Below are positions 1,690 through 55,412 of a stretch of 56,453 nucleotides of DNA, in pieces. This DNA is from Chiloscyllium plagiosum (lineage: Eukaryota). Position 1 is the first letter of the stretch, and each line of letters starts with the position of its first letter. The stretch covers positions 71,452,087-71,508,539 of the forward strand of contig NC_057718.1 in the NCBI RefSeq assembly GCF_004010195.1, read 5' to 3'. The position numbers were made by a program, and so were the translations under genes. The notes under the pieces are model-generated. The model searched no databases and was not told the origin of the DNA. It worked only from the letters and a program-made list of their open reading frames with translations.

Positions 1690-2944
1690 TTAGTTTCTAT
1701 GTCTTGCCCTGTTTCCAGTCTCCATTTCTTTAACTGTTTCTCCAAGTAGGCAACTTTCTTCAAGTGGATCCCCTCTCAGAGCCTGCGGGTCGATTTTGGG
1801 TGGGTAATAGTGTCTTAAGGCCTGCCATACATTGTGTCTCACTTGATCAAACTCAACCCCATCAATCATTGGATTGTCTGCCACATTTTTCAAACGGGCT
1901 CGGACCATTATTTCCTTTAACTTCGGGAGCCCTACCAACCTCACGAGCAGTGCCTTCAAGTCTCCTAGAGCCAGCAATCGCTCTGTGGTTTCATCTTCAA
2001 AAGCCCTGATCCACTTTTCTGCTCCCTCATGTAAACTGGACAGCGCATTCTTCAGCCGTTCCAGATCCTGAGTTCCCCAAGGAATGTATTGTGGGTTTCT
2101 CCCCTCTTTTATAAGGAGCGGTTGCATCCTTCCCTGTTGGCCCTTTTTCCCTTTATTAACACTACTTCTCAATAAATCACCCTTGGGCTCCGAGTATGAT
2201 GCTATTTCTAATTCCTCCCATTCTTTAGGTACTGGGGCCTTTTTCTTTCCTTGTCTCTCATCATCCCTTTCTGCTTGTTTTGCGTCACTTTCACAGCTTT
2301 TCTCTTCAGCCCTCCTTTCATATCGCAATGAGTATTCCTCAATTGCTTTTTGCTCCCTTAGCCCACGCAGCACACTAATCTTATTTTTCAGTTTTTCTTG
2401 CTCTCATTGTATAGCTTCTATTGGTCCTGCCTGTCTCTTTTCTCTCTTCCTCTTCTTTCCCTCAGTTCATTTTTGTCTTCCACACTCCCATCCCATTCTA
2501 ACTGTCCCTCTATTTCTACTGTTCCCTATATTTCCTGAAACTGCTTCAATGCCTCTTCATTCGAGTAGGGAGGAGGTCTATTCAACTTCTCCACATCTGG
2601 GTATAGAGGGGGTGCTGATTCCTGCTTTTCTGTTTCCCGTAACTGCTCAGCTTGTTCTTTTGCAACTTTCCTAGTCACCACAGGTGCCTAACAAGCTACC
2701 TTCAGTTCCTCATCCTCTTTCCTTAAAAGTTTCAGTATTTCCATCTTCTGCTCCATTTTGGCTTATAGTTCTTAATTAATCCTTCCATCTCATTGCACAT
2801 ATGTATATCAAAAGTACCTTCTTTTGGCCATTTAGTTAATAAATCCCCAGTTCTTTTTCCCCATTTCTCAGAAATCTTTACAATATCATTTCTTGCCACT
2901 GGAAATTTCTTACTGATTATCTCAACTGCAGTCCCTTTATCCAT
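1690..2944 (-). pseudogene. gag: Endogenous retrovirus gag, disrupted (matrix and capsid portions)
   Basis: ORF 2732-2944 has WPKEGTFD (class I matrix WPxxGTF motif). ORF 1690-2373 has YIPWGTQDL...WIRAFE...LGDLKALL, resembling fish epsilon-like capsid. Lies downstream of a PBS and LTR. Confidence 0.8.
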
Positions 2945-5710: not shown

Positions 5711-5918
5711 TCATGATTTGGAGATGCCGGCGTTGGACTGGGTGTACATAGTTAAAAATCACACAACATCAGGTTATAGTCCAACAGGTTTATTTGGAAG
5801 CACTAATGTTCAGAGCTAGTTGTACAACCACCTGATGAAGGAGCAGTGCTCTGAAAGCTAGTTCTTCCAAATAAACATGTTGGACTATAACCTGGTGTTG
5901 TGTGATTTTTAACTTTGT
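5711..5918. mobile_element. Penelope pLTR-derived fold-back element with a minimal hammerhead-like core
   Basis: About 75-bp inverted arms plus an about 31-nt extension on the left. Degenerate 13-bp TSD (acaccaacactcg 5698-5710 / acactgacacttg 5919-5931). Confidence 0.75.
5829..5863 (+). ncRNA. Minimal type I hammerhead ribozyme-like motif
   Basis: cac CTGATGA A GGAGC agt GCTCT GAAA GC TA gt: CUGAUGA and GAAA cores, 5-bp stem II (one G-U), palindromic AGCU stem III, UA cleavage site. Confidence 0.65.
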
Positions 5919-6863
5919 ACACTGACACTTGGAAGAGTAATCCACCCAGAGCCATTCCTCTGCCCTATTATCTTATATTTACCCCTAACTAATGCACCTA
6001 ATCTACACATCCCTGAAGGCTATGGGCAATTTAGCACAGCCAATTCACCTAACCTGCACATCTTTTGGGTTTGGAAGAGATTTACTATGGTGTTGCTAGG
6101 AGTGAAGGGTTTGAATTATAAAAAAACGCTGAATAATCTGGTACCTTTTTCACTGGAGCTTAGGAAGTTGAGGTATGAGCTTTCAGGGAATTCAGCCCCA
6201 GCCTATTCAGCCTCTTCCTATAGCTGAAACTCTCCAACTCTGGCTATATCCCTCCAAATCCTTTCAAGTTTCACAACATCCTTCCTATCGGAGGGAGACC
6301 AGAATTATATACAACATTTCAAAGTGGCCTAGCTAATGTCCTGTATAGCCGCAACATCAACTCTCAACTCTTATACTCAATGCTCTGTCCAGTAAAGGAA
6401 AGCATATGAAATGCCTTCTTCATTATCCTATCTATCTAAGACTCCACTTTCAAAGATCTATGAACCTGCACTCCAAGATGTCTTTGTGCAGCAATGCTCC
6501 CCAGGACCTTACTATTAAGTGCCTAAGTCCTGTCCTGATTCGCCTTTCCAAAATGCAGCCCCTCACATTTATCTACATTGTGAGAATTTGGTCAGATCCA
6601 GTTGGACTCAGAGGTAACCTATTTGCTGTACACTACATCTCCAATTTTGGTGTCATCTGCAAACTTACTAACTATACATCCAAATCATTTATATAAATGA
6701 TGAGAAACAGTGGACCCAGCACTGATCCTTGTGGCACACAACTGGTCACAGGGCTCCAGCCACAGAAGCAACCCTCCACTACCAGCCTCTGTCTTCTACC
6801 TTCAAGCTGAAAATGTGTTGCTGGAAAAGCGCAGCAGGTCAGGCAGCAACCAATGAGCAGGAG

Positions 6864-6899
6864 AATAGACGTTTCGGGCATGAGCCCTTCTTCAGGAAT
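6864..6899 (-). ncRNA. Minimal hammerhead ribozyme-like motif (minus-strand arm)
   Basis: Minus strand: attc CTGAAGA A GGGC tcat GCCC GAAA CGTC tatt. Confidence 0.6.
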
Positions 6900-7120
6900 G
6901 AGGAAAGTGTGCCAAGCAGGCCAAGATAAAAGGTAGGGAGGAGGGACTTGGGGGAGGGGTGTTGGAAATGTGATAGGTGGAAGGAGGTTAAGGTGAGGGT
7001 GATAGGCCGGAGTGGTGGTGGGGCCGGAGAGGTCAGGAAGAAGATTGCAGGTTAGGAAGGTGGAGCATTTTCAATGCCCCTCCCTACCTTTTGACTTAGC
7101 CTGCTTGGCACACTTTCCTC

Positions 7121-7156
7121 ATTCCTGAAGAAGGGCTCATGCCCGAAACGTCGATT
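7121..7156 (+). ncRNA. Minimal hammerhead ribozyme-like motif (plus-strand arm)
   Basis: attc CTGAAGA A GGGC tcat GCCC GAAA CGTC gatt: CUGANGA/GAAA core, 4-bp GC stem II, palindromic ACGU stem III, GUC site. Confidence 0.7.
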
Positions 7157-7453
7157 CTCCTGCTCATTGGATGCTGCCTGACCTGCTGCGCTTTTCCAGC
7201 AACACATTTTCAGCTCTGATCTCCAGCATCTGCAGTCCTCACTTTCTCCTTCTACCTTCGAGACAGTTTTGTATCCAAATGGCTAGTTCTTCCTGTATCT
7301 ATGTGATCTAACCTTGCTAACGAGTCTAGAATGAGGAACCTTATCGAATGCCTTACAAAACTCCATATAGATCATGTCCACCGCTCTGCCCTCATCAATC
7401 CTTTTCGTTACTTCTTCAAAAATCTCAATCAAGTTCATGAGACATGACTTCCT

Positions 7454-12796: not shown

Positions 12797-15700
12797 AGAG
12801 TCATAGAGAGGTACAGCACAGAAACAGTCCCTTTGGTCCAACTCGTCCATGCTGACCAGCTATCCCAACGCAATCTAGTCACACTTGCCAGCAGCTGGCC
12901 CATATCCCTCCAAATCCTTCTTAGACATATACCCATCCAAATGCCTTTTAAAAGTTGCAATTGTACTAGCTTCCACCACTTTCTCTGGCAGCTCATTCCA
13001 TACACGTACCATCCTCTGCGTGAAAGAGTTGCCCCTTAGATCCCTTTTATATCTTTCGCCTCTCAACCTAAACCTATGCCCTCTGGTTCTGGACTCCCCC
13101 AACCCAGAGAAGAGTCTTTGTCTATTTATCCTATCCATGCCCCTCATGATTTTATAAACCTCTATCAGGTCTCCAATGCTCCAGGGAAAACAGCCCTAGC
13201 GTATTCAACCTCTCCCTCCAAGCTCAAATCCTCCAAGCTCAAATCCTCCAAGCCTGGCAACATCCTTGTAAATCTTTTCCGAACCCTTTCAAATTTCACA
13301 ACACCTTTCTGATAGGAAGGAGACCAGAATTGCACGCAATATTCCAAAAGTGGCCTAACCAATGTCCTGTACAGTCGCAACATGACCTCCCAACTCCTGT
13401 ACTCAATACTCTGATCAATAAAGGAAATCCCCAAACGCCTTCTTCACTATCCTATCTACCTGCAACTTCACTTTCAAGGAGCTGTGAACCTGCACTCCAA
13501 GGTCTCTTTGTTCAGCAACACTTGCTAGGACCTTACCATTAAGTATAAGACCTGCTAAGATTTGCTTTCCCAAAATGCAGCACCTCACGTTTATCCAAAT
13601 TAAACTCCATCTGCCACTTCTCAGTCCATTGGCCCATCTGATCAAAATCCCATAGTAATCTGAGGTAACCCTCTTCACTGTCCACTACACCTCCAACTTT
13701 GGTGTCAGCAGCAAACTTACGACCTATACCTCTTATGCTTACATCCAAATCATTCATATAAATGATGAAAAGTAGTGGACTCAGCACTGATCCTTGTGAC
13801 ACTCCACTGGTCACAGGCCTCCAGTCTGAAAAGCAACCCTCCACTACCACCCTCTGTCTTTTACCTTTGAGCCAGTTCTGTATCCAAATGGCAAGTTCTC
13901 CCTGTATTCCATGAAATCTAAACTTACTCACCAGTCTCCCATGGGGAACTTTGTCGAACGCCTTACTCAAGTCCATATAGATCACATCTACCACTATTGC
14001 GTCATCAATCTTCTTTGTTACTTCTTCAAAAAACTCAAACAAGTTTATGAGATAGGATTTCCTACGCACAAAGCCATGTTGAGTATCCCTGATCAGTCCT
14101 TGCCTTTCCAAATATATGTACATCCTGTCCCACAGGATTCTCTCCAACAATCTGCCCATCACCGAGGTCAGGCTCCATGGTCTATAGCTCCCTGGCTTGT
14201 CCTTACCACCTTTCTTTAACAATGGCACCACATTAGCCAACCTCCAGTCTTCCAGCACCTCACCTGTGACTATCGATGATACAAATACCTCAGCAAGAGG
14301 CCCGGCGATCACTTCCCAACTTCCCACAGAGTTCTCGGGTACACCTGATCAGGTCCTGAGGATTTATCCACTTTTATGCATTTCAAGACGTCCAGAACTT
14401 CCTCCTTTTTAATATGGACACTTTTCAAGATGTCACCATCTATTTCGCGACTCTATCTTCCATGTCCTTTTCCAACAGTAAATACTGTGGCAAAATACTC
14501 GTTCAGTATCTGCCCCATCTTTGAAGGGCCCTATTCTCTCCCTAATTACAATTTTGTCCCTAATGTATTTGTAAAAACCCTTTGAAATCTCCTTTACTCT
14601 ATTTGACAAAACCATTTCATGTCCCCTTTTTGCCGTCCTGATTTCCCTCCTAAGTATACTCCTACTGTCTTTATACTCTAAGGATTCACTTGATCTATCC
14701 TGTCTATACCTGACATGTGCTTCCTTCTTTTTCTTAACCAAACCCTCAAATTCTTTAGTCATCCAGCATTCCCTATATCTACCAGCCTTTCCTTTCACCC
14801 TAAAGGAATATACAGTTCCCTGGACTATCGTTATCTCATTTCTGAAGGCTTCCCATTTTCCAGTTGTCCCTTTACTTGCAAACATCTGCGCCCAATCAGC
14901 TTTTGAACGTTCTTGCCTAATACCATCAAAATTGGCCTTTCTCCAATTTAGAACTTTAACTTTTAGATCTGGACTATACTTTTCCATCACTATTTCAAAC
15001 TAATAGAATTGTGATCGCTGTCCCCAAAGTGCTTTCCCATTGACACCTCTGTCACCTGCCCTGCCTTATTTCCCAAGAGTAGGTCAAGTTTTGCACCTTC
15101 TCTAGTAGGTACATCCACATACTGAATCAGAAAATTGTCTTATATACACTTAAATTCCTCTCAGTCTAAGCCCTTAACACCATGGCAGTCCCACTCTATA
15201 TTTGGAAAGTTAAAATTCCCTACCATAACTACCCTATTATTCTTACAGATAACGGAGATCTCCTTACAAATTTGTTTCTCAATTTCCCTCTGACTATTAG
15301 GGGGTCTATAATACAATCCCAAAAAGGTGATCATCCCTTTCTTATTCCCCAGTTCCACCCAAATAACTTCCCTGGATGTATTTCCGGGAATATCCTCCCT
15401 CAGTACTCAGTAATGCTATCCCTTATCAAAAATGCCACTCCCCCTCCTTTCTTGTCTCCCTTTGTCCTTCCTTAGCATTTGTATCCTGGAACATTAAGCT
15501 GCCAGTCCTGCCCATCCCTGAGCCATGTCTCTGTAATTGCTATGATATCCCAGTCCCATCTTCCTAACCATGCCAAGAGTTCATCTGCCTTCCCCGTTAG
15601 GCCTCTTGCATTGAAATACACTGTAAATGCAGTTTAATTTATCCGTCCTACCTTGTTCTCTGCTTTGTCCCTGCCTGTCCTGTTTGACTCACCTTTGTTT

Positions 15701-18079: not shown

Positions 18080-18605
18080 CTGAAACACGTGAAAGGACAG
18101 CTTCAGTCAATCTATTCAAAAAACTTCGCATTAGCAGATTTTCAATAATTTCAGATGCAAATCCTTTACAGAAACAAATGTCATTGCATACGTATTTGTA
18201 AATATATGAGAAACAGGATTTGAAAAGCTAACTCCCAATGAAGAGGCACACTGGACCAAAAAGCCACTGCGTGTGGCGTCCTTTTCATCAGCATGGTAAA
18301 TTATAGGCTGTTATTTCTATCACGAGGCACAGAAATACCAGGCATCATTCAAAGGAAAATATAACAGATAAATAATAAATGCCAGTAATAAAAGACTGTT
18401 ATGGGTCAGGACTTTTATCAGGAAGACAATATTATTAATACAATATAAATGAAAGAGTGGGAGCTTATGAAATATGATATAATGACAAAGATCCCTTGAG
18501 TATGCTTTTTTGATAATTTGATTACTAACACAGCTGTAATGTCCCAATCCAAAAGTTTTAAATACTTCTGAATCCTATCCAGAGAGAGAGAGACGGAGAG
18601 AGAGG

Positions 18606-19105
18606 NNNNNNNNNNNNNNNNNNNNNNNNNNNNNNNNNNNNNNNNNNNNNNNNNNNNNNNNNNNNNNNNNNNNNNNNNNNNNNNNNNNNNNNNNNNNNNN
18701 NNNNNNNNNNNNNNNNNNNNNNNNNNNNNNNNNNNNNNNNNNNNNNNNNNNNNNNNNNNNNNNNNNNNNNNNNNNNNNNNNNNNNNNNNNNNNNNNNNNN
18801 NNNNNNNNNNNNNNNNNNNNNNNNNNNNNNNNNNNNNNNNNNNNNNNNNNNNNNNNNNNNNNNNNNNNNNNNNNNNNNNNNNNNNNNNNNNNNNNNNNNN
18901 NNNNNNNNNNNNNNNNNNNNNNNNNNNNNNNNNNNNNNNNNNNNNNNNNNNNNNNNNNNNNNNNNNNNNNNNNNNNNNNNNNNNNNNNNNNNNNNNNNNN
19001 NNNNNNNNNNNNNNNNNNNNNNNNNNNNNNNNNNNNNNNNNNNNNNNNNNNNNNNNNNNNNNNNNNNNNNNNNNNNNNNNNNNNNNNNNNNNNNNNNNNN
19101 NNNNN
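18606..19105. other. Assembly gap (500 N), preceded by a GA-rich repeat
   Basis: Run of N. Confidence 1.
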
Positions 19106-20599: not shown

Positions 20600-21780
20600 C
20601 TAGAAACTATACAAACATCGGAAAGAGGTAGACTGCCATTCAAGCCTATTCCATCATTATGATCATAGCTAATTATCCAATTCAATAGCACGTTCTTGCT
20701 TTTCAGCCATCTTCTTTAATGCCTTTGACTTCAAGTACTATAATGAACACCTTCTTGAAATCATACAATGTTTTCACCTTAAATGCTTTCTGTGATAGCA
20801 AATTCCAAAGGCTCACCACTCTTTGGGTGATTAAATTCTAACTTATCTCAGTCCTGAACGAAAACCGAAAGATGCTATAAATCAAACAAAGAAGTTGCTG
20901 GAAAAGCTCAGCATTTGTAATGAGAAATCAGAGTTAATGTTTTGGGTCCACTGATTTCTCTTCACAGATCCTGCATAACTTGCTGGGCTTTTCCAGCAAC
21001 TTCTATTTTTGGTTAAGTCCTGAATGATTTCCCCACATCCTTAAGCTGTGACCCCTGGGTCTGGATTCACCGGTCTTCAAGAATATCTTTTCTGCATCTA
21101 GTCCTGTTAGAATTTTATAGGTTTCTGAGATCCCTTTCATTCTTCTGAATGCCAGTGAATATGATCCTAATTAACTCAATCCCAAGCATCAGTCTGGTAA
21201 ACCTTTGCTTTACTCTGTCTATAGCAAGAACATCCTTCTTCAGATAAGGAGGGCAAAGCTGCACACAATATTCTAGGTGTGGTCTCACGAAGAACCTGCA
21301 TAAGGGCAGCAAGACATCTCTGCTCCTGTACTCAAATTCTAACTATGAAGGCCAACATCCCTTTGGGTGCATCACTGTCTGCAACTACATGCTTTAGTGA
21401 CTGATGTAGAAGGACACCCAGCTATCATTGCATATCCCTTCTCTCAGCTTGGAGCCTGTTTTTGCTCCCAAAGTAGATATCCTTGTATTTATTCACATTA
21501 TACTGCATTTGCCACACATTTACCCAATCACTCAAGTTTGTCCAAATCAAACTGGAGCACTTCTGCAACCTCTAACAGCTCACCCTGCCATCCAACTTTG
21601 TCTCATTTGCAAATTTAGGGGTATTACCATTTAGTTTCCTTATTTAATCATATGTTTATATTGTGAATAACTGGGGTCCTAACACCCCTTTAATCACTGA
21701 CTGTAATTAGGAAAAAGGTACAATAATCCTTCTGATTCCTGTCTGCCAACCAGTTTTCTAAACATCGCAATAAATCTTGA
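20600..21780 (-). mobile_element. Old CR1/L2-type LINE 3' fragment
   Basis: ORF 21115-21312 VRPHLEYCVQL..PYLKKDVLAIDRVKQRFTRL. Confidence 0.85.
20861..21015. mobile_element. Small Penelope pLTR-derived fold-back element
   Basis: Inverted arms gaagttgctggaaaagc / gcttttccagcaacttc. TSD agtcctgaacg (20850-20860) / agtcctgaatg (21016-21026). Confidence 0.7.
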
Positions 21781-22205: not shown

Positions 22206-25200
22206 ATCAGAGAGTAAATTCTTTTTGATTATATATATTTTATTTAGATCTGTCTCTTGATTAAATTTTAAAACATATAACTTAGGTACTCAGTTAGCTT
22301 GGAGCAGTGTTTTTTTTTAAATAGCAATAAGACTGTGCTATTTTCTGGGTCTGTAGGTTGTTAAGGTGCAAAGATGGCCTTTCTCGAGTGATGTGCTCTT
22401 ACTGTCTCATGAGCGAGATTAGGGAGCATTTCCACGTTACTGATTATTATATCTGCAGCAAGAGTTTGGCTATGAATCCTATCAGATCACATGGATTGGT
22501 GGGAGTGGCAGTTTGAGGCAATGTGGAATTTACAGGAGCAAGAAGATGTGATGGATAACAGTTATAAAGGGAGATAAACTGCAGATACAGTCAGGTAGAT
22601 GCATTACCTCCAGGAAAGGTAGGAGAAGGAGACAGGTAGTGCAGGAACCTCCTGTGTGGTTATCCCCATCTCAACAAGTATGCTGTTTTGGAAAATGTAT
22701 GTGGTGATAGACTCTCGGGGGAATGTAGGACAAACAGCCAAGTTTCTGCTATAGAGAGTAATACTAAAGTAATGAAGGATACATCAGGTTCCAAGCGATC
22801 GACTGTGATAGGGGAATCTCTAGTCAAAGGCACAGACAGATTTCTGTGAACAACAGTGAGAAATAAGAACGCTGTGTGTTGCCTCCCCTCCTGCCAGGAT
22901 CAAGGGTATCTGAGAGAGTGCAGAATATTCTCAATGGGGAGAGGGACCAGCAGGAGGTTGTTGTTCCAACGTGTTCAACAATACAGGAAGGGAAAAAGAA
23001 TGAGATTCTGAAGGGAGAATATAGGAAGTTGACAGGATTTTAAAATGGAGGCCAGTGAGGGTGGTAATATGTGGATTACTCCTGGTGCTATAAGCTGGTG
23101 AGGGTAGAAATAGGAGGATAGAGCAGATGAATGTGTGGCTGAGGAGCTGGTCAGGGAAAAGGGTTCACAATTTTGGATCATTCAAATCTCTTCTGAGCTA
23201 TGAGTGACAGATTGCACCCGAATTGGAAAAGGACTAATATACTGCAGCGAGATTTGCTAGAGTGCTTGGGAGGATTTAAACTAGTAAGTTGGCGTTGGGG
23301 TGGGGGCGGTGACAGTGCAGAGAGATAATGAGGAAAGAGACCAGTCTGAGACTGATACAGTTGGGAAAAAAGGAGCAAGTCAAACAGTCAGGGCAGGTAG
23401 GAACAAGACAGAATGAGGTCGGCTGATAAAGTAAACTGCATTTATTTCAATGCAAGATGCCTCACAGAGAAGGCAGATGAACTCAGGGCATGGTTAGGAA
23501 CATGGGACTGGGATATCATAACAATTACAGAAAACGTGGCTCAGGAATGGATAGGATTGGCAGCTTAATGTTCCGGGTATAGATGCTACAGGAAGGATAG
23601 AAATAGACGTAGAACTGAGAAATAAGAAAGGGATGATCACCTTATTGGGATTGTATGAGAGACCCGACCCACCTCCACCACCCACCCACCCGAGTGGTCA
23701 GCAGGAAATTAAGAAATAAATTTGTTGGGAGATCTCAGCTATGTCAGAATAATAGGATTGTTATGGTAGGGGGTTATAACTTTCCAAACATAGACTGGGA
23801 CTGCCAATGTTAAAGGTTTAGATGGAGAGGAATTTGTTAAGTGTGGACAAGAAACTTTTCTGATTTAGTATGTGGATGTACCTGCTAGAGAAGGTGCAAA
23901 ACTTGACCTATTCTTGGGAAATAAGGCAGGGCTGGTGACGGAGATGTCAGTGGTAGAGCACTTTGGGGTAAGCAACCATAATGCTATTAGTTTTAAAATA
24001 GTGATGGATAAGGATAGACAGGATCTAAAAGTTCTAAATTGGAGGAGGGAAAATTTTGATGGTATCAGATAAGAGTTTTGGGACCATTGCTGTTTGCCAT
24101 TTTTATAAATGACTTAGACGTAGGCATAGATGGATGGATTAGTAAATTTGCAGATGTCACTAAAGTTGGTGGAGTAGTGGACAGTGTGGAAGAATGTTAC
24201 AGGTTGCAGGGGGACTTGGATAAACTGCAGAATTGGGCTGAGAGGTGGCAAATGTGAGGTGATGCACATTATGAAGAATAACAGGAAGGCAGAGTACTGG
24301 GTCGACGGAAAGATTCTTTGTCGTGTGGATGTGCAGAGGGATCTTGGAGTCCATGTACATAGATCCCTGAAAGTTGCCACCCAGGTGGATAGTGCTGTTA
24401 AGAAGGCATACGGTGTGTTAGGTTTCATTTGTAGAGGGATTGAGTTCCGGAGCCGCAATACCATGCTAAAACTATACAAATCGCTAGTGCAGCCACACTT
24501 GAAATATCGTGTACAGTTCTGGTCCCCATATTTCGGGAAGGATGTGGAAGCATTGGAAAAGGTGCAGAGGAGATTTACCAGGATGTTGCCTGGTCTAGAG
24601 GGAAGGTCTTATGAGGAAAGGCTGAGAGACTTGGGTCTTTTCTCATTGGAAAGGTGGCGGCTAATGGGGGATTTGATAGAGACACACAAGATGATCAGAG
24701 GATTATATAGGGCAGACAGTGAACGTATTTTTTCTAGGATGATGATGTCAGCTTGTACGAGGGGGCATAACTACAAATTGAGGGGTGATCGATTTAAGAC
24801 AGATGTCAGAGGCAGGCTCTTTACGCAGAGAGAGTGTGGTAAGGGCATAGAATGCTCTACCTGCTAATGTAGTCAACTCAGCCTCCCTAGGGAGATTTAA
24901 ACAATCCTTAGATAAACACATGGATCATTTTGGGATAGTGTAGGGGGACAAGCTGAAGATAGTCCACATGTCGGCACAACATCAAGCGCCAAAGGGCCTG
25001 TTCTGCGCTATATTGTTCTATGTAACTTTCAAAAGTTGACTAGGGTCAGATGTTCACAGGTAAAGGGACGGCTGGAAAATGGGAAGCCTTCAAAAATGAG
25101 ATAACAGGAGTCCACAGGCAGAATATTCTTGTTAGGATGAAAGGCAAGGCTGGCAAACGTGGGGAATGCTGAATGACTAGAGAACTTGAGACATTGATCA

Positions 25201-27741: not shown

Positions 27742-28103
27742 AAATGAGATTGTTTTCAATTGGCATGTTTTGTTAACTCCACTACTTAACTCTAGCCACT
27801 TAAACCTATTAAAAATCTTTATCAATAAAACCAGAAGTGCAGATGCTGTAAAAATCAGAAACAAAAAACAGAAATTGCTGGAAAAGCTCAGCATGTCTGG
27901 TAGTATCTGCAAGCTGGAAGTACAGAACTGCAGCGAGACGCTCAGAACCGAACACAACACTCCAATGCAGCCCAAAATAATGTATTATAACCTATTTACT
28001 TTTGTACTCCATATTGCTATATAAAAGTTCATGCACCTTTGGAGCCACTCTGCTGCCCTCATGATTTGAGCAAGTATCTCTGCTGAACTTTCAGCTCAAG
28101 TTT

Positions 28104-30935
28104 CAGGGACGCAAGATGGCACTGGCAAGCAAGAAATTGTTTTGAAGTGTGTCTACTTCAACGCCAGGAGCATTCGGAATAAGGTGGGTGAATTTGCAGC
28201 ATGGGTTGATATGTGGAACTTCGATGTTGTGGCCATTTCAGAGACATGGATAGAGCAGGAACAAGAATGGTTGTTGCAGTTTCCAGGAATTACATGTTTC
28301 AGTAAGAACAGAGAAGATGGTAAAAGAGGGGGAGGTGTGGCATTGTTGGTCAAGGACAGTATTACAGTTGCAGAAAGGATGTTTGGGGACTCGTCAACGG
28401 AGGTAGTATGGGCTGAGGTTAGAAACAGGAAAGGAGAGGTCACCCTGTTGGGAGTTTTCCAAAGGCCTCCGAATAGTTCCAGAGATGTAGAGGAAAGGAT
28501 AGTAAAGATGATTCTCGATAGGAGTGAGACAGACAGGGTAGTTGTCATGGGGGACTTCAACTATCCAAATATTGACTGGGATCACTACAGTAAGAGTACT
28601 ATAGATGGGTCAGTTTTTGTCCAGTGTATGCAGGAGGGCTCCCTGACACAGTGTGTAGACAGGCCAACTCGCATTAGATTTGGTACTGGGTAATGAGCCC
28701 AGCCAGGTGTTAGACTTGGAAGTAGGTGAGCACTTTGGTGATAGCGATCACAATTCTGTTATGTTTACTTTAGTGATAGAAAGGGATAGGTGTGTACCAC
28801 TGGGCAAGAGTTACAACTGAGGGAAAGGCAATTACGATGCGATTAGGCAAGATTTAGGAAGCATAGGATGGGGAAGGTAACTGCAAGGGATGGGCATATT
28901 AGAAATATAGAGCTTATTCAAAGAAAAGCTCCTGAGTGTCCTAGATACGTATGTACCTGTCAGGCAGGGAGGAAGCTGTAGAGCACGGGAGCTGTGGTTT
29001 ACGAAGAAAGTGGAATCTTTCGTCAAGAGGAAGCCGGCGGCTTATCTTAGGATGAGGTGTGAAGGCTCAGTTAGGGTGCTTGAGGGTTACAAGGTAGCCA
29101 GGAAAGACCTAAAAGAGAGAGCTCAGAAGAGCCAGGAGGAGACATGAGAAGTTTTTGGAGGACAGGATCAGGGTAAACCCTAAGGCTTTCTATAGGTATT
29201 CAAGGAATAAAAGAATGACAAGAGTAAGATAAGGGCCAATCAAGGATAGTAGTGGGAAGTTGTGTGTGGAGTCAAAGGAGATAGGGGAAGCACTAGATGA
29301 ATATTTTTCAACAGTATTCAGTCTAGAAAATGACAATGTTGTCGAGGAGATTACTGAGATACAGGCTACTAGACTAGGTGTGATTGAGGTTCACAAAGAA
29401 GAGGTATTAGAAATCCTGCAGAGTGTGAAAATAGATAAGTCCCCTGGGCCGGATGGGATTTATCCTAGGGTTCTCTGGGAAGCCAGGGAGGAGATTGCCG
29501 AGCCTTTGGCATTGATCTTTCAATCGTCTTTATCTACAGGAATAGTGCCAGAAGACTGGAGGATAGCAAACGTGGTTCCCTGTTCAAGAAGGGGAGTAGA
29601 GACAGCCTTACTTCAGTTGTTGGTAAAGTATTGGAAAAGGTTATAAAAGAGATAGGATTTATAATCATCTAGAAAATAATAATTTGATTAGGGATAGTCA
29701 GCACAGTTTTGTGAAGGATAGGTCGTGCCTCACAAACCTTATTGAGTTCTTCGAGAAGGTGACCAAACAGATAGATGAGTGTAAACCGGTTGATGTAGTG
29801 TATATGGATTTTAGCAAGGCGTTTGATAAGGTTCCTCACCGTAGACTATTGTACAAAATGCAGAGGAATGGTATTGTGGGAGATATAGCAGTTTGAATCA
29901 GTAATTGGCTTGCTGAAAGAAGACAGAGGGTGGTGGTTGATGGGAAATGTTCATCCTGGAGTCCAGTTACCAGGGGTGTATCGCAAGGGTCGGTGTTGGG
30001 TCCACTGCATTTTTATAAACGACCTGGATGAGGGCGTAGAAGGGTGGGTTAGTAAATTTGCAGATGACACTAAGGTCAGTGGAGTTGCGGATAGTAACGA
30101 ATGATGTTGTAGGTTACAGAGAGATATAGGTAAGCTGCAGAGCTGGGCTGAGAGGTGGCAAATGGAATTTAATTCGGATAAGTGTGAGGTGATTCACTTT
30201 GGTCAGAGTAACCGGAATGCAAAGTACTGGGCTAATGGTAAGATTCTTGGTAGTGTAGATGAGCAGAGAGATCTCGGTGTCCAGGTACACAGATCCTTGA
30301 AAGTTGCCACCCAGGTTGACAGGGTTGTTAAGAAGGCTTTAGCTTTTATTAATAGAGGGATCAAGTTCCGGAACCATGATCCCTGCTGCAGCTGTACAAA
30401 ACTCTGGTGTGGCCGCACTTGGGAGTATTGTGTACAGTTCTGGTCACCGCATTATAAGAAGGATGTGGAAGCTTTGGAAAGGGTGCAGAGGAGATTTACT
30501 AGGATGTTGCCTGGTATGGAGGGAAGGTCTTATGGAGGAAAGGCTGAGGGACTCCAGGCTGTTTTCGTTGGAGAGAAGTTTGAGAGGTGACTTAATAGAG
30601 ACATATAAGATAATCAGAGGGTTGGATAGGGTGGACAGGGAGAGCCTTTTTCCAAGAATGGTGACAGCGAGCACAAGGGGACATAGCTTTAAATTGAGGG
30701 GTGATAGATATAGGACAGATGTCAGAGGTAGTTTCTTTACTCAGAGTAGTAAGGGTATGGAATGCTTTGCCTGCAACGGTAATAGATTCACCAACTTGAA
30801 GTACATTTAAGTCGTCATTGAACAAGCATATGGACGTACATGGAGTAGTGTAGTTTAGATGGGCTTCAGATTGGTATGACAGGTCGGCGCAACCTCGAGC
30901 GCTGAAGGACCTGTACTGCGCTGTAATGTTCTATG
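28104..30935 (+). mobile_element. CR1 ORF2 (EN + RT), frameshifted, with 3' tail
   Basis: KCVYFNARSIRNK, ISETW, GDFNYPNIDW, KSPGPDG and KFADDTK. Tail tgtaatgttctatg. Confidence 0.95.
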
Positions 30936-38438: not shown

Positions 38439-41188
38439 CATAGAGTCATCGAGATGTACAGCATGGAAACAGACCTTTCGGTCCAACCAGTCCATGCCGA
38501 CCAGATATCCCAACCCAATCTAGTCCCACCCGCCAGCACCCGGCCCATATCCCTCCAAATCCTTCATATTCATATACCCATGCAAATGCCTCTTAAATGT
38601 TGCAATTGTACCAGCCTCCACCACATCCTCTGGCAACTCATCCCATACACGTACCACCCTCCTGTGTGAAAAAGTTGCCCCTTAGGTCTCTTTTATATTT
38701 TTCCCCTCTCACCCTAAACCTATGCCCTCTAGTTCTGGACTCCCCGACCCCAGGGAAAAGACTTTGTCTATTCATCCTAGCCATGCCCCTCATAATTTTG
38801 TAAACCTCTATAAAGTCACCCCTCAGCCTCCGATGCTCTAGGGAAAACAGCCCCTGTTCAGCCTCTCCTGATAGCTCAAATCCTCCAACCCTGGCAACAT
38901 CCTTGTAAATCTTTTCTGAACCTTTTCAAGTTTTGCAACATCTTTCCGATTGGAAGGAGACCAGAATTGCACGTAATATTCCAACAGTGGCCTAACCAAT
39001 GTCCTGTACAGCCGCAACATGACCTCCCAACTCCTGTACTCAATACTCTGACCAATAAAGGAAAGCATACCAAACGCCACCTTCACTATCCTATCTACCT
39101 GCGACTCCACTTTCAAGGAGCTACAAATCTGCACTCCAAGGTCTCTTTGTTCAGCAACACTCCCTAGGGCCTTACCATTAAGAGTATAAGTCCTGCTAAG
39201 ATTTGCTTTCCCAAAATGTAGCACCTCGCATTTATCTAAATTAAACTCCATCTGCCACTTCTCAGCACATTGGGCCACCTGGTCCAGATCCTGTTGTAAT
39301 CCGAGGTAACCCTCTTCGCTGTCCACTACATCTCCAATTTTGGTGTCATCTGCAAACTTACTAACTGTACCTTTTATGCTCGCACCCAAATCATTTATGT
39401 AAATGACAAAAAGTAGAGGACCCAGCACCGATCCTTGTGGCACTCCACTGGTCACAGGCCTCCAGTCTGAAAAGCAACCCTCCACCTCCTCCACCACCAT
39501 CACCTTTGAGCCAGTTTTGTATCCACGAGATCTAACCTTTAGTCCATGAGATCTAACCTTGCTTATCAGTCTCCCATGGGGAACCTTGTCGAACGCCTTA
39601 CTGAAGTCCATATAGATCACATCTGCTGTTCTGCCCTCATCAATCACCTTTGTTACTTCTTCAAAAAACTCAATCAAATTTGTGAGACATGATTTCCCAC
39701 ACACAAATCCATGTTGACTATCCCTAATCAGTCCTTGCCTTTCCAAATACATGTACATCCTGTCCCTCAGGATTCCCTCCAACAACTTGCCCACCACTGA
39801 GGTCAGGCTCACCGGTCTATAGTTCCCTGGCTTGTCTTTACAGCCCTTCTTAAACAGTGGCACCACGTTTGCCAACCTCCAGTCTTCCGGCACCTCACCT
39901 GTCACTATCGATTATACAAATATCTCAACAAGAGGCCCAGCATCACTTCTCTAGCTTCCCACAGAGTTCTTGGGTACATCTGATCAGGTCCTGGGGATTT
40001 ATCCACCTTTAACCTTTTCAAGACACCTAGCACTTCCTTGTCTGTAATCTGGTCATTTTGCAAGATGTCACCATCTATTTCTCTCCAGTCTATATATTCC
40101 ATATCCATTTCTACAGTAAATACTGATGCAAAATATTCATTTAGTATCTCCCCCATTTTCTGCAGCTCCACACAAAGGCTGCCTTGCTGATCTTTGAGGG
40201 GCCCTATTCTGTCCCCAGTTACCCTTTTGTCCTTAATATATTTGTAAAAACCCTTTTTTCCTTAATTCTATTTGCCAACGCTATCTCATGTCCCCTTTTT
40301 GCTCTCCTGATTTCCCTCTTAAGTATACTCCTACTTTCTTTATACTCTTCTAAGGATTCACTCAATCTATCCTGTCTATACCTGACATATGCTTCCTTCT
40401 TTTTCTTAACCAAACCCTCAATTTCTTTAGTCATCCAGCATTCCCTATACCTACCAGCCTTCCCTTTCACCCTGACAGGAATATACTTTCTCTGGATTCT
40501 TGTTATCTCATTTTTGAAGGCTTCCCCATTTTCCAGCCGTCCCTTTACCTGCGAACATCTGCCTCCAATCAGCTTTCGAAAGTTCTTGCCTAATACCGTC
40601 AAAATTGGCCTTTCTTCAATTTAGAACTTCAACTTTTAGATCTGGTCTATCCTTTTCCATCACGATTTTAAAACGAATAGAATAATGGTCGCTGGCCCCA
40701 AAATGCTCCCCCACTGACACCACAGTCACCTGCCCTGCCTTAATTCCCAAAATTAGGTCAAGTTTTGCACCATCCACATACCGAATCAGAAAATTGTCTT
40801 GTACACACTTAAGAAATTCCTCTCCATCTAAACCCTTGACACTATGGCAGTCCCAGTTGATGTTTGGAAAGTTAAAATCCCCAACCATAACTACCCTATT
40901 ATTCTTCCAGATAGCTGTGATCTCCTTACAAGTTTGTTCCTCAATTTCCCTCTGACTATTAGGGAGTCTATAATACAATCCCAATAAGGTGATCATCCCT
41001 TTCTTATTTCAGTTCCACCCAAATAACATCCCTGGATGTATTTCCGGGAATATCCTCCCTCAGCACAGCTGTAATGCTATCCCTTATCAAAAATGCCACT
41101 CCCCCTCCTCTCTTGCCTCCCTTTCTATCCTTCCTTAGCATTTGTATCCTGGAACATTAAGCTGCCAGTCCTGCCCATCCCTGAGCCA
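38439..41188 (-). mobile_element. Relatively young CR1 (EN-RT), 5'-truncated; 355-aa RT ORF at 38838-39905
   Basis: Full set of RT motifs (QHGF, DFSKAFD, PQGSVLGP, KFADD) and 3' tail. Confidence 0.95.
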
Positions 41189-43935: not shown

Positions 43936-44021
43936 CTGCATGAAAAAGACAAGTGAAAGTTAGCCAAAATAAAAACAGATTTTCAATGCATGTTAAATTT
44001 TGAAACCATTGACAGTTATGG

Positions 44022-44521
44022 NNNNNNNNNNNNNNNNNNNNNNNNNNNNNNNNNNNNNNNNNNNNNNNNNNNNNNNNNNNNNNNNNNNNNNNNNNNNNNN
44101 NNNNNNNNNNNNNNNNNNNNNNNNNNNNNNNNNNNNNNNNNNNNNNNNNNNNNNNNNNNNNNNNNNNNNNNNNNNNNNNNNNNNNNNNNNNNNNNNNNNN
44201 NNNNNNNNNNNNNNNNNNNNNNNNNNNNNNNNNNNNNNNNNNNNNNNNNNNNNNNNNNNNNNNNNNNNNNNNNNNNNNNNNNNNNNNNNNNNNNNNNNNN
44301 NNNNNNNNNNNNNNNNNNNNNNNNNNNNNNNNNNNNNNNNNNNNNNNNNNNNNNNNNNNNNNNNNNNNNNNNNNNNNNNNNNNNNNNNNNNNNNNNNNNN
44401 NNNNNNNNNNNNNNNNNNNNNNNNNNNNNNNNNNNNNNNNNNNNNNNNNNNNNNNNNNNNNNNNNNNNNNNNNNNNNNNNNNNNNNNNNNNNNNNNNNNN
44501 NNNNNNNNNNNNNNNNNNNNN
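44022..44521. other. Assembly gap (500 N) in SOD2 intron 1
   Basis: Run of N. Confidence 1.
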
Positions 44522-48118: not shown

Positions 48119-48845
48119 GCTATAGTTTGAAGTAGACCGGCAGGAGGCTGGAAGAACACAGCAAGCCACGAAGCATCAGGAGGTGCAGAAATCGATGTTT
48201 TGGGTGTAACCCTTCAGGACTGGGGGTGGTGTGGGGGGGAGATAAAGTGGGAGGCGGAGGCAGGGTGTTGAAGTGACCCAGGTTGGGCTAACAAGTCAAA
48301 AGGTGTGGTGCTGGAAAAGCACAGCCGGTCAGGCAGCATCCGAGGAGCAGGAGCAGGACGCTGTCTGAGACTGTGCTTTTCCAACACCACACATTTTGAC
48401 TCTAATCTCCAGCATCTGCAGTCCTCACTTTCGCCTTGATTAGAAACAAAAAAAATGCAGATGTTGGAATCCAAAGTAGACAAGCAGGAGGCTGGAAGAA
48501 CACAGCAAGCCAGGCAGCTTCAGGAGGTGGAGAAATCGATGTTTTGGGTGTAACCCTTCAGGACTGGGGGTGGTGTGGGGGGGAGATAAAGTGGGAGGCG
48601 GAGGCAGGGTGTTGAAGTGGGGATAGGTGAAGACAAGTAGAGGGTACAACATGGTTGGTTGATGGGGGAATGAATCCAGTTGTTGGCAGGGAGCTGTGGA
48701 AGGGAGGCGGATGGGGAAGGAAGTTATTTGAAATTGGAGAACTCAAAGTTGAGTCCTCCAGGCTGTAGGGTGCCCAGGTGGAAGTTAAGGTGTTGTTCTT
48801 CCAACAGGAGCTGTGGTTTGTTTTGGCAATGGAGGAAGCCAAGGC
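48119..48845 (-). mobile_element. Tandem Penelope pLTR copies (about 48132-48276 and 48473-48618) with a fold-back element between (about 48294-48438)
   Basis: About 145-bp near-identical direct repeats with a degenerate CTGA..GGG TTAC ACCC AAAAC motif on the minus strand. Confidence 0.75.
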
Positions 48846-49892
48846 TGGCCTTCAGACCCTGGCTTCTTTCCTTCCAATAGACCCATCCAGTCTCCCTCCA
48901 CCAATACCCTCCTCTACCTCGCCGAACTGCTCCTCACCCACAATAACCTTTCCTTTAAATCTTCCCATTTCCTCGAATCAAGGACTTGGCCATGGGTACC
49001 CGGATGGGCCCCAGCTATGCTTGTTTCTTTGTCAGCTATATCGAACAGTCCCTGTTTAGTACCTGCACTGTACCCCAACTTTTCCGCAGTTACATCGATG
49101 ACTGCATCGGGTGCAGCGTCCTGCACCCAGGGCTGAACTGGAGCAGTTCATCGATTTCGCCCACAACTTCAACCCCACCCTCAAATTCACTTGGTCCATC
49201 TCAGACACCACCCTTCCCTTTCTTGTCCTCACCATTTCCATCTCCGGCGACGGTCACCAGATGGACGTATACTACAAAACTGCAGACTCCCACCCAGTAT
49301 CCTGCAAGAACTCCATCCTGTTCTCCCAATGCCTCCGCCTCCACCACATCTGCTCAGCGAGGAGACATTCCACTCACAAGCATCCCAGATGTCCACCTAT
49401 TTTGAACAACTTGCTTTTCCTCTCACTGACATCCAGACAGCCCTCTGCCACACCACCTCCATTCCCCATTCCACCGCTCTAAACCACCCCTGCCAACGCA
49501 ATAAAGATCGAGTCCCCTTTGTCCTCACCTACCACACATAGTCTTTGCATCCAACGCATAATCCTTAAGTACTTCCATCAACTTCAAATAGACTCCACCC
49601 CCAAGAATATCTTCCCCTCCCTACCCCTCTATGCCTTCTGCAAGGACCGTTCCCTCTGATAGTCCTTGGTTCACGCCACCCCTGCCACTGAACGCCCAGA
49701 TACCTTCCCTGCAACCAGAAAAGATGCAAAACCTGCCAGTACACCCCCTCCCTCACCTCCATCCAGGGCCTGATGAAAAGCTTTCACCCAAAATGTAGAT
49801 TTTCCTGCTCCTCGGATGATGCCTGACCTGCTGTGCTTTTCCAGTGCCACACTGTTGACTCTGATCTTCAGCATCTGCAATACTCACTTTTG
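48846..49892 (+). mobile_element. Penelope-like element RT fragment and pLTR
   Basis: MAMGTRMGPSYAC...RSYIDD, LPFL, VYYKTADSH, SQCLRLHHICS. The pLTR begins cctgatgaa at about 49769. Confidence 0.9.
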
Positions 49893-49899
49893 CGATGTG

Positions 49900-51509: not shown

Positions 51510-53059
51510 TCATGATAACCACCTAGATGGGGGATGAGAAAGGCGCTTCCAATTTATTCATAAGAATCTTACAGTCAGTACTTAAGCAAGTTATTGACGC
51601 ACAACATACTTTGATTATAACAACAAAAATCACTAGCCCAAGTTCCTCCCAGTAGCCATCCAAGCCAGCCATCTTAGGGCCTGGTCCAAAATTAACAGTT
51701 GGTTCCGAATAAACTCAATGGCATGGGTTATGATGTATGATTCATCTGTAACCTGGGTGATGTATCTGTCCCTCACAGTTGTACCCCAACCACCCCACTG
51801 GGCCAATAGATAGTCTACTGCATATCTGGTCTGTTGTGCCTTAACTTTGCCAATTCCTGATTAACTGTATCCAGTCTCCTGAGATGGTTAACCCACAAAT
51901 GAGGTAATTTAGGTGTTTTGCTGTCATCGTTCCCGCTGACCCCCCCCCAAGGGACAGCATCCCCAGGAACGTGTAGCTAAGGGAAGAACCTAGAGTCACT
52001 GGGTCCTTTCATTCTGCACAAAACTCTTGACTAATAGCTCTGGTTACTATTTTGTAAGGGGTAGGTGCCTTCTGAGGGCTCCTACTGTCCCTACAGCAAC
52101 AGGATGGGGAGATTGGGGTGGCTGTAGTAAGGGTCCCATTGAAAAGGAACACAAACCTTTATTTGGCCCGGAAGCATTTCACTGCTTGGTTATTGGCAGT
52201 CGCAAACTGTTTACATCTCAGTTTCTCTCCTAATTGGAGTTTTCTCCTGATCCGATCAGTTGGTAGTCATAAAAAGGATATGGCCAAAAGGCCGAGCTGA
52301 CATGTGTTCCATTGCAATATCCACAAATGAACTGCCTTCCTGTAGTAACATTTAAGCACCCTTCCTTGTCACAGGTGCGGGTGAATATTCCATTGCTCAC
52401 CTGGCAAAGCCTGCGGGCGCATTGTTTTTGCGTATAAGAGGTATTTGTGGGAACGAAAGCATAAGTACAGCCCCACCCGCCGTCCTGAGAAAGTGGATAG
52501 CTCATGGGATCATAGCAAGTTGTACCTCTGTAGCTAGGGGGCTAAATCTGTCAGCTCTACGCACAGTCCCAATGTCATCCTTTTAAACTTCCCGCTTTGA
52601 CCTACATGGGGCACCTGAAGTATCTATGTGAATAGGCTGGGGGGGGAGGGGGGGAGTTCACCCAGAAATGGGTACAAATAACACCTCTATGGACTGGACA
52701 AGTGGGTAACGTACAGTTCAATTACCATGGAGAAAGTAAGGACTGCAGATGCTGGAGATCAGAGCTGAAAAATTTGTTGCTGGAAAAGCGCTGCAGGTCA
52801 GGCAGCGTCCAAGGAGCAGGAGAATTGACGTTTCAGGCATAAGTCCTCCTGAAAAAGGGCTTCTGCCCGAAACGTCGATTCTCCTGCTCCTTGGATGCTG
52901 CCTGACCTGCTCTTTTCCAGCAACACATTTTTCAGTTCGATTACTATGCAAACGTATATGAGTCTTATAAAACAAATTGTCCTCTAGGCCTAACATTGTG
53001 ATGGCGGCCATGATACCGCAGAATGCAAGTGTCGTCTTTAGACCGTCTGAGGGGCCCAT
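51510..53059 (-). pseudogene. env: ERV env, disrupted
   Basis: Signal-peptide-like start MGPSDGLKTTLAFCGIMAAITMLG, Cys-rich SU (52230-52505), KIVTR/AI putative cleavage region, immunosuppressive-domain-like QQTRYAVDYLLAQWGG (51790-51836), and a hydrophobic TM segment. Confidence 0.8.
52730..52932 (-). mobile_element. Compact Penelope pLTR fold-back element inserted in env
   Basis: Same family as 6804-7248 in the opposite orientation. TSD cagttcaattaccatg (52714-52729) / cagttcgattactatg (52933-52948). Confidence 0.85.
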
Positions 53060-55412
53060 TGTCTAGACAGTCAGGTGGAGCCAGTGACTCTGGCCTTGGA
53101 CTTTTACTGCTGTTGGCATCTGCAGTTGCACCTGGAACTGTCCTTTTTACCGGTGGAATTGCCCCAAGCTTGGACAGTCTTTAATTAGCATAAGTTCTCC
53201 TGTTTGTAGTCTGGGGCTCACTCTGGCTGTCTGAATCTTGATCTGTCAGTGGTCCGAAGGCATGCTTGACCTGTGAGTGGAGAAACTTTAGGGACAATGT
53301 TAGCTGCTGAAAGTATCTCTGTATTTCCTCTCCCAAAACATTTACGTCTGCATGGTTGGGTGGGTTGGTCTGTGTTTGCATCCCTAGGGGTCCATCTGGG
53401 TCGGCCATAAATTATTTCGACTGTGTGTGGTAATCCTCGTGATACATGGCTAAAAGTAGGACCTTCAATCAGTTGAGGCCTGTTTCAGACATTATCTTAG
53501 TTTGGTTTTAAGAGTCTTGTTCACTCTTTCCAGTATTCTTGCCGCCTGAGGGTGGTAAGCGCAACAGAATTGCTGCTGGATATCACACATAGCTCGTTGA
53601 TTTTCCCTACACAGTGGGGGCCATTGTCTGAACTAAGATGCCGAGGCACTCCAAATCTCGGTATGATCTCTGTCAGGAGTAATTTTACCACCGTTGAGGC
53701 TTTATTATTAGTGGTCGGAAAGGCTTCAATCCATCTTCTAAATACGCCACTAATAACAAGACAATGCTTATAACAATGTATGCACGGCAATTCAATGAAA
53801 TCAAGCTGGATGCCTTTGAATGGACCACCAGGCAAGTGTGTTCTCCCTGTTACATAGCACACCCCTTGACCAGCATTGTTTTGCTAGCATGTTAAACATG
53901 ATCTGACACGCTTCTGGGCTGCCTCGGCCAGTCCGGTGTGTCATCAGGTACGCAATATGATATTACTCATTCCCTCCTTGCCAAGATGGTATCAGCATGA
54001 AGACAGACAGAAAAAAAAACCCACACTGCAAACTGACACAGCAGTGAACCTGCATAGTTATTGCTTTTGCTGTTTGAATTCATGTATTGTTGGACATCAG
54101 AGTGCGTCAGGGAAGTTAACAAACAGTGAAAATCACAGTTTATCAGCATTGGTAATAAAACATCAGGTGTACATACCTGGCCAGCTGGGGTGATCCAGAG
54201 GCCTTTTGATGCAGAGTGCGAACACCCATGCATCTTCCATATTTGTTTTTCTGGGTCGGGGTGCCCCCCTGAAAACACTGCACAGTGACAATGTCTGGTA
54301 TGCATGTTGTTTTTGAGGCAGATGATCGATGTAGTGCCTGCTGGTTCCCAGAGGACAATAGAATTGAGAGCTGTTGCCGCATCTCTGGCAGCTCGATCAG
54401 CTCTGGTATTGCCATTACTGATGTCTGTATTGTCCGTTACATGGGCAGCACACTTGATAATGGCCATTGCTTGGGGAGGAGGATGGCTTTGAGAAGATTT
54501 TGGACATGCAGTGAGTCCTGAATAGGTGTCCCTGAAGAGGTCAGAAATCCGCGTTTTGATGATAGCTGGCCAAAGTTGTGCGACATGCCAAAAGCATACT
54601 GCTCGTCCATGTATAGATTTACTGATTTTCCTGTGGTCAGGACACAAGCCCATGTTAGAGCAAAGAGTTCTGCTTTCTGAGCAGATACTGGAGGATCGAA
54701 GGAGGGCAATTCTAAGGTGTCTGTGTGGTTCATGCTGCGTATTTTGAAAGGGGCACTCCTAAGGGTGATATGGAAGAACTGCTGTCCACAAAGAGGGTAA
54801 AATCTGGTGTGGGTAATGGGGTGTCTACAAGGTCTGGTTGAGGGGAGGTTAAGAAGTAGTTGTGCAAAAGGAAATCATGGTGGGGGGGTGGGGTTCTGAG
54901 AGCTCCTCTGGAGGGGTACACAGTTGAGCAGGCGGAGAAGGTCAGGGGGGTTATTGAGTAGGGCTACTTCGTAATGGCTAAGTCAAGCTTGTGTAAGGTG
55001 TTGGGTCTGATGGGAAGTTAGGAGGGCTACAATGGCATGTGACGAATAGATAATCGGCTTTTTGGAGAGTAATATTGAAAATGGCCATGACGAGAGTAGA
55101 TAGCTGGGAGAATTTGTCAGCAGGGTGGGAGGTCCATGGTGACAGGGTCAAGGCTTGGCTCTTGTGATCCTTGTGGGTTTGGGTTAAAGCAACAGTTGCA
55201 CAGTCCTCTCGGATACATGCATACAACTGGAAGAGCTTGTCTTCCGAGTGTTGGGCTCTTGCCAGGGCCGTTTTTAATTCAGTGAAAGCTAACTTTTGTT
55301 CTTTTAGTGTGAAGGTGTTTGAAGCCTTGTTTGAGGCCAAAGAGGTTAATTGGTTGGTGAGTAATTTTATGTTAGGGAGCCACTATCGGCAGTAGTTAAC
55401 TAGGCCCAAAAA
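53060..55412 (-). pseudogene. pol: ERV pol (RT thumb/tether, RNase H, integrase), disrupted; 5' part cut off by a CR1
   Basis: FLGLVNYCR, LFVDSSS, SAQKAELFALT, IIKCAAH, GNTRADRAA, QLDFIELP...WIEAFPT...IIPRFGVP..LSSDNGPH; class I (gamma/epsilon-like) style. Confidence 0.92.
53999..54140 (+). mobile_element. Isolated internal CR1 5'UTR segment inserted in ERV pol
   Basis: Similar to about 55655-55790. Flanked by a 9-bp direct repeat tatcagcat (53990-53998 / 54141-54149). Confidence 0.8.

Follow-up and report, generated by a model that had tools for sequence, protein, structure and literature searches.

The 445-bp insert at positions 6804-7248 of the stretch of Chiloscyllium plagiosum DNA analysed here (56,453 nt, hereafter the window) is most probably a one-off, dead-end insertion, made by the reverse transcriptase (RT) and GIY-YIG endonuclease of a Penelope-like element (PLE), in which two truncated copies were joined head to head; we put the probability of this reading at about 0.85. 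That the insert derives from a PLE is, judged from its anatomy, highly probable. Since its layout is one already described for PLEs, and hence already known, the insert is one more example of a described insertion product, with modest value as a fossil of PLE integration. The features discussed below are collected in Table 1, and published systems are cited from portions of the papers named.

Table 1. Features of the insert, its target and related repeats in the window
Feature	Positions	Strand	Basis or description
Host: decayed LINE RT sequence, split by the insert	6300..7453	-	Empty-site copies, flank identity
Left target site duplication	6793..6803		Perfect over 11 nt; 14 nt (to 6806) if one CpG-type mismatch is allowed
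Tail-less, inverted, 5'-truncated copy of the repeat end, 259 nt	6805..7063	-	Alignment; joint 6942/7079 in 3/3 DNA runs; in run X12, a loose end of the family behind 7063
Core of a minimal type I hammerhead, without the first pair of helix I	6868..6895	-	T in place of G behind the predicted cleavage site
"Spacer", for the most part unpaired: upstream sequence of the family, part of the tail-less copy	6942..7063	-	DNA-run tables
Head-to-head junction of both copies	7063..7066		Depth trough 7062-7073; loose end behind 7063
Tailed copy in direct orientation, truncated 5', 184 nt; 16 nt deleted close to its inner end	7065..7248	+	Alignment
Core of a minimal type I hammerhead, with CUGAAGA, one extra A, a stem II of 4 bp, GAAA and palindromic ACGU for helix III	7125..7152	+	Sequence; features compared with PMC4209133
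33-nt tail, on one arm only	7216..7248	+	Alignment; family loose ends at ~7217 and 7249/7250
Right target site duplication	7249..7259		11 nt perfect
Third inverted insertion, related end	48294..48437		Tail on one arm, turn downstream of hammerhead, no core
Decayed RT-coding element with Penelope-like motifs, ending in hammerhead-plus-tail module	48880..49893	+	Sequence; Atlas neighbours
Second inverted insertion, same repeat end	52729..52938		Tail on one arm, turn inside hammerhead, 16-nt near-duplication with 2 mismatches

The insert and its target site

The insert lies within a decayed LINE RT remnant and is bracketed by a perfect 11-nt target site duplication (TSD), as a first-pass annotation of this DNA had reported; a perfect match of this length would be expected by chance with a probability of ~1e-4 in a 20 x 20 search. 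The match reaches 14 nt if it is continued to 6806, with one G/A mismatch at a CpG and a 2-nt overlap with the element end. Six other LINE copies span this site, and in four of them GAG directly follows the TSD position; a decayed CpG is therefore the likely origin of the A at 6804, and the duplication may be as long as 14 nt. The true TSD is 11-14 nt. The empty site is crossed by these six copies in the window at 67-83% identity, and the flank of the insert is 76% identical to 38962-39485, whose open reading frame (ORF) matches RVT_1 at E 7e-31. We take the host LINE to be CR1-like. The target is not AT-rich.

A 132-aa open frame at 6672-7070 (minus strand) was considered as a gene and rejected, as it runs from the element into the LINE RT. 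With the element part of this frame, 2 of 34 candidates matched, both isoforms of one shark gene model that carries a piece of the same repeat, and a search of 1.84 billion representatives gave one weak, multi-stretch match at 29% identity. In two FUBP3-like isoform models of C. plagiosum, the terminal residues are a translation of part of the repeat end (82% over 34 aa), which may be either an exonisation or an annotation artefact. Elsewhere in the window, decayed LINE RT and endonuclease fragments occur at 457-996, 13539-14348, 24178-24867, 28070-30810 and 38838-41008, and pieces of a broken retrovirus-like or LTR-element pol lie in 53521-55382 on the minus strand (integrase core rve, E 6e-9; RNase H, E 8e-6). 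A 237-aa open frame at 1690-2403 (minus strand), presumably gag-like by eye, had no Pfam match. Two assembly gaps of ~500 N lie near 18600-19100 and 44020-44520.

Two truncated copies joined head to head

Alignment of the two halves showed that one repeat end is present twice in the insert, as 5'-truncated copies that meet head to head. The arms (6805-6941 and 7079-7215) are 137 nt long and 96% identical, with 5 mismatches, and their homology continues inward to 7065 across a 16-nt deletion. The inverted arms of about 140 bp that had been noted in the first pass are thus real, but they are not terminal on both sides, as 33 nt lie outside the right arm. The internal junction it had placed at about 7065-7077 likewise exists, although we locate the turn at 7063-7066. 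Homology at the junction is at most 2 nt, possibly a GC microhomology, and a long palindrome is absent.

To compare the insert with its family, three DNA runs and one RNA run (of 24 listed) were aligned to 6942-7300 at 85% likeness. The DNA runs contain at most 51% of the words of this region and probably come from relatives, and a family confined to the source genome could go unseen in them; depth summed over them does not equal copy number. Results showed the strand-change joint 6942/7079 in all three DNA runs, and the spacer is therefore the normal upstream sequence of the family. Substitutions at 6989, 7016 and 7024 within the spacer are private to this copy, and 48 contigs of run X12 run past 7063 with other letters. 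The spacer is absent from the tailed arm and the tail is absent from the spacer-bearing arm, so that neither arm is a full copy of the other. Loose ends of contigs accumulated at 7249/7250 (1231, 1389 and 1750 + 1014 contigs) and behind 7206 (422, 473 and 467 contigs), all among the 18 of 1182 loose ends listed; those behind 7206 begin with 11 letters similar to the end of the arm and then become AT-rich, with little agreement among contigs. These pile-ups are consistent with two 3' ends, the second near 7217, and we infer that the repeat family ends at ~7217 as well as at 7249/7250.

Differences between the arms are unevenly spread, with 8 in the inner 35 nt and 2 in the outer 116 nt, at a cut-off chosen post hoc and with 3 of the 8 fitting CpG decay. 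Between 7065-7098 and 6922-6972, the 8 events include a 16-nt deletion between short repeats. A general rule that inner arm ends are more diverged was discarded, as the effect was significant in this insert only (p = 1.0 and 0.38 in the other two inverted copies). A simple insertion model leaves the excess of inner changes unexplained, and later gene conversion of the stem would give this pattern, as might be expected if the inverted structure arose after insertion, by inversion or hairpin repair. Such an origin, or one from two independent insertions, is nevertheless hardly credible, given that a single TSD brackets both arms and that the one-tail layout is found in three of three inverted copies and is standard for PLEs. 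Both arms also carry an A at 7166, where C makes up 89-94% of family depth and A at most 2-5%; none of the four other window copies covering 7166 has it. Since the two arms share this rare A, they come from one source or were homogenised later.

The repeat end and Penelope-like elements

The insert itself is without an ORF for a PLE-type RT or a GIY-YIG endonuclease. An end at 49769-49890, however, is 79% identical over 122 nt to 7124-7245, and it closes the decayed, frameshifted RT element at 48880-49893. This element reads MGTRMGPSY, YIDD and C-X4-C-X2-C, the first two of which we take to be RT motifs. No GIY-YIG was seen in it; from just past C-X4-C-X2-C the sequence jumps to the hammerhead-plus-tail module, and the endonuclease region is apparently missing. 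Among Atlas neighbours, look-alikes of the decayed RT scored 0.96, with 28% of members carrying PF26215 in one set, and 0.92, with RVT_1 on 13-21%; these are leads from part-proteins. Pfam gave no match in three ORFs or three read-through frames of the decayed RT, word-indexed protein searches with pieces of it gave none among 1 and 18 candidates, and PDB sequences gave one chance match only (E 0.14). A full-length parent carrying this exact end was not found.

The link of the repeat end to a Penelope ORF through its protein is thus no more than suggestive, and the PLE assignment rests mainly on anatomy: an inverted, 5'-truncated copy placed head to head, a 33-nt tail at one end, a short TSD and a hammerhead in the pLTR. 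The first-pass annotation had suspected that the insert looks like a MITE and is nonetheless derived from a retroelement linked to Penelope, and the head-to-head copies and the one-sided tail, which fit the PLE layout, agree with that view.

Hammerhead cores and predicted RNA folding

The two hammerhead cores noted in the first pass were both recovered by pattern search. They are identical over 28 nt, lie on opposite strands with a gap of 229 nt between them, and are the sole strict-pattern matches in the window. The core features of the minimal hammerhead (min-HHR) are all present, i.e., CUGANGA, GAAA and UH, an extra base 9/10.1, G10.1-C11.1 and a palindromic 15.2-16.2, whereas helix I falls short of the 4-5 bp of the min-HHR. 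In the plus copy, helix I consists of C-G, U-A, U-U and A-U; its first pair is missing in the minus copy, where the base after the predicted cleavage site is T, as compared with G at 7153 in the plus copy. The weak stem I and the altered base had been pointed out before, and in isolated fragments the predicted pair probabilities were at most 0.001 for helix I and 0.79-0.97 for stem II. Since a variant with a four-pair helix I (7155 T>A) accounts for only 1.6%, 0.2% and 12% of depth in the three DNA runs, a weak helix I is the family norm.

As the copies stand head to head, the antisense arm is transcribed before the core in both directions. In the full RNA predicted from either side the core is paired, with a mean unpaired probability of 0.001, and stem II has a pair probability of 0.000 in both transcripts. 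Read-through RNA from either side is therefore predicted to bury the ribozyme in a hairpin, which bears out an earlier suggestion to this effect. The minimal hammerhead requires a second copy on the same strand, and those of PLEs are given as inactive as monomers and weak as dimers in the relevant portion of PMC4209133. Since the second copy here is antisense and is transcribed first, self-cleavage of the insert RNA would be unlikely. No Rfam family matched the window at gathering score; with E up to 10, the region 6780-7270 gave five matches far under the gathering scores, none of them a hammerhead, and these were set aside as hairpin or chance matches. From the single RNA run, 0 reads aligned from ~6% of the run, a figure that is no measure of expression.

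The predicted hairpin is a strong one (z = -22.8; duplex ~ -299 kcal/mol), and a duplex of this strength would suit an insert co-opted by the host as a regulatory hairpin that acts through double-stranded RNA, editing or small RNAs. The annotation of a related end inside a shark FUBP3-like protein model also indicates that such ends can enter gene models. We consider co-option the least likely of the readings weighed here, as the insert is located in a decayed LINE within a repeat-rich window and its private substitutions are like those of a neutrally decaying copy.

An amplifying family or a single event

The first-pass annotation proposed that the insert is a retrozyme-like unit that amplifies as such, and it held that a unique junction in every copy, together with a catalytically inactive RNA, would count against this. 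The results largely agree with this second outcome. The spacer and junction occur once in the window, and three inverted copies of this or a related repeat end have three different junctions, with the turn upstream of the hammerhead, inside it, or downstream of it with no core left. In all three the tail is on just one arm, and the end point of the other arm is shared. Of the two arms, the one without the tail extends further 5' in three of three copies of this end; as a rule for all such stubs this was dropped, because by eye it held in only one of two from other families. The near-TSD of the second inverted insertion overlaps the tail-less end by a few bases, and a TSD of the third was looked for and not found.

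Similar structures lie nearby. At 48130-48619, the third, hammerhead-less stub is flanked on each side by a direct copy of another repeat end (146 bp, 96%); these copies have a decayed hammerhead-like motif on the minus strand and resemble a partial tandem of a second family. An inverted stub of a different family at 5712-5922 has 75-nt arms (91%); its right arm bears a hammerhead-like core with another stem II, and only its left arm is extended by what looks like a tail. A stub of a third family at 20848-21025 is flanked by a near-duplication of ~10-11 nt, and again a tail-like extension is confined to the left arm, which in this case exceeds the other in length.

In the related runs the end module is highly repeated, as 96,635-133,695 contigs aligned per DNA run. 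Depth in the junction bin (7062-7073) was nevertheless 2.3%, 3.5% and 2.3% of that in the left-hand bin, and 5.8%, 14.7% and 11.5% of that in the right-hand bin, which is itself lowered by the private deletion of this copy; part of the residual depth is due to contigs with an end in the bin. Among the 24 pieces listed, out of 344,389, none spanned the junction. Among the 15 of 137 joints listed, 5 were strand changes at scattered places in the arm and 2 were "go-back" joints in tandem, of the kind seen in partial-tandem pLTRs. Metagenome, genome and viral contig collections gave no match to exact DNA patterns taken from the arm.

MITEs are recognised by inverted repeats at both termini and by many copies of uniform structure. 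In this insert, by contrast, the tail lies outside the right arm, the unit is single in the window, and the junction falls in a depth trough in the three related runs. A fixed, amplifying 445-bp unit is not supported. A non-autonomous, retrozyme- or MITE-like palindromic family, transcribed and re-inserted as a 445-nt unit, would account for the clean TSD, the 96% identity of the arms and the strong predicted hairpin, and the DNA runs probably come from relatives. We nevertheless regard such a family as very unlikely: to the single occurrence and the trough must be added that neighbouring copies turn elsewhere, that the ribozyme is predicted to be fully paired, and that same-strand tandem hammerheads, the mark of non-LTR retrozymes in the portions of PMC7229834 and 10.64898/2026.07.22.740005 cited here, are absent. 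Slightly less likely still is a young family limited to the source genome, whose head-to-head product would itself be mobile, as a palindromic retro-MITE carried by PLE proteins, with its ribozyme silenced by the antisense arm and freed only when transcription starts in the spacer. If this were true, a private, amplified, fixed junction would represent a new kind of non-autonomous retroelement.

A proposed mechanism of insertion

A single insertion by PLE proteins, the reading we favour, might have proceeded as follows. The PLE protein would make a staggered cut of 11-14 nt in the LINE remnant, and each freed target 3' end would prime a cDNA. On the bottom strand, synthesis would start at the outer RT site, so that the tail is copied and 184 nt are kept; on the top strand, it would start ~33 nt further in, with 259 nt kept. 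The two truncated cDNAs would then meet at 7063-7066, where they share no more than 2 nt. The two hammerheads would be passengers of the pLTR, and their placement on opposite strands would preclude a dimer. Since neither arm contains the other, two separately primed cDNAs are likely, and we rate the odds of this two-primer step as somewhat better than even. Work on an Anolis PLE offers a precedent for several of these steps: as described in part of Frangieh et al., 2024 (PMC11167929), the protein cuts and extends both target strands in vitro, RT starts at two sites bounding the tail, and insertion is unaffected in hammerhead mutants.

The same identity could also be reached by self-priming, in which one nascent strand, perhaps on an antisense template, folds back on itself and the endonuclease resolves the intermediate and leaves the tail. 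Such a fold-back has been proposed for the inverted junctions of PLEs (portions of PMC3846280 and PMC8557442), the rare A at 7166 in both arms fits the copying of one arm from the other, and the excess of inner-end changes could reflect an error-prone restart. We think it the less probable route, and a doubtful one, on the layout of the insert. Fold-back of a tailed cDNA on sense RNA would put the spacer on the tailed arm, whereas here it is on the tail-less arm, and fold-back of a tail-less cDNA would give no tail. In addition, the tail-less arm reaches further 5' in every copy of this end, and the junction, with no more than 2 nt of homology, is without a long palindrome. A hybrid route, with fold-back plus a short second cDNA, is possible. 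A literature search, with most subscription papers outside its reach, found no paper that uses the term "twin priming" for the inverted ends of PLEs among the 14 it listed.

The insert may be of use for understanding how PLEs integrate. The split of spacer and tail between the arms fits two RT start sites, one used on each target strand, and a spacer on the tail-less arm with the tail on the other is hard to obtain from one fold-back. A shark-type genome contains such stubs by the thousand, and counts of arm lengths, shared rare alleles and junction microhomology over them could separate two-primer insertion from self-priming.

Comparison with known systems

In PLEs, an inverted 5'-truncated copy often adjoins the 5' end, and a tail of 30-40 bp is often present at one end only (part of Craig et al., 2021, PMC8557442); copies that lie between inverted pLTRs and have TSDs of 9-10 bp and a 31-bp tail have also been described (part of Arkhipova et al., 2013, PMC3846280). 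The insert resembles the EN+ PLE unit, as portrayed in these portions, in its head-to-head inverted copy, its tail at one end (33 nt here and 31 nt in A. vaga Pen2a), its short TSD, its insertion into a non-LTR retrotransposon and its strong 5' truncation. It differs from that unit in having no ORF body and only ~260 and 184 nt of the end, from the published PLE unit in a junction without a long palindrome, and from rotifer PLEs in a TSD of 11-14 nt rather than the 8-10 nt given for them in the sources cited. A linker of the form CX2-5CxxC upstream of the endonuclease is described for Neptune and Nematis, and as absent from Penelope/Poseidon, in the part of PMC8557442 used here; a stretch that would fit this form, C-X4-C-X2-C, was seen only in the related decayed element at 48880-49893.

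Dual minimal hammerheads 100-700 bp apart on opposite strands were reported in 2014 (Cervera and De la Pena, PMC4209133, in part). The cores in the insert are like the min-HHR of metazoan PLE pLTRs in core, extra base 9-10.1, G10.1-C11.1, palindromic 15.2-16.2 and lack of helix III. They differ from the S. mansoni min-HHR, which has 4-5 bp in that portion of PMC4209133, in that helix II has 4 bp and helix I, which is weaker, meets a U-U mismatch after 2 pairs. Sharks go unmentioned in that portion. Non-LTR retrozymes consist of head-to-tail tandem units with a hammerhead in each and form circular RNA, according to parts of Cervera and De la Pena, 2020 (PMC7229834) and Li et al., 2026 (bioRxiv 10.64898/2026.07.22.740005). 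The insert is like them in being non-coding, hammerhead-bearing, PLE-related and a few hundred bases long, and unlike them in that its two motifs lie on opposite strands rather than in same-strand tandem. With the Poseidon element of Anolis carolinensis (PAc), as covered by the same portion of Frangieh et al., 2024, the insert would have in common, as far as the proposed mechanism goes, a tail delimited by two RT start sites, the cutting and extending of both strands, and a dispensable hammerhead; unlike the insert, PAc favours targets rich in AT, and its hammerhead lies at the start of the ORF.
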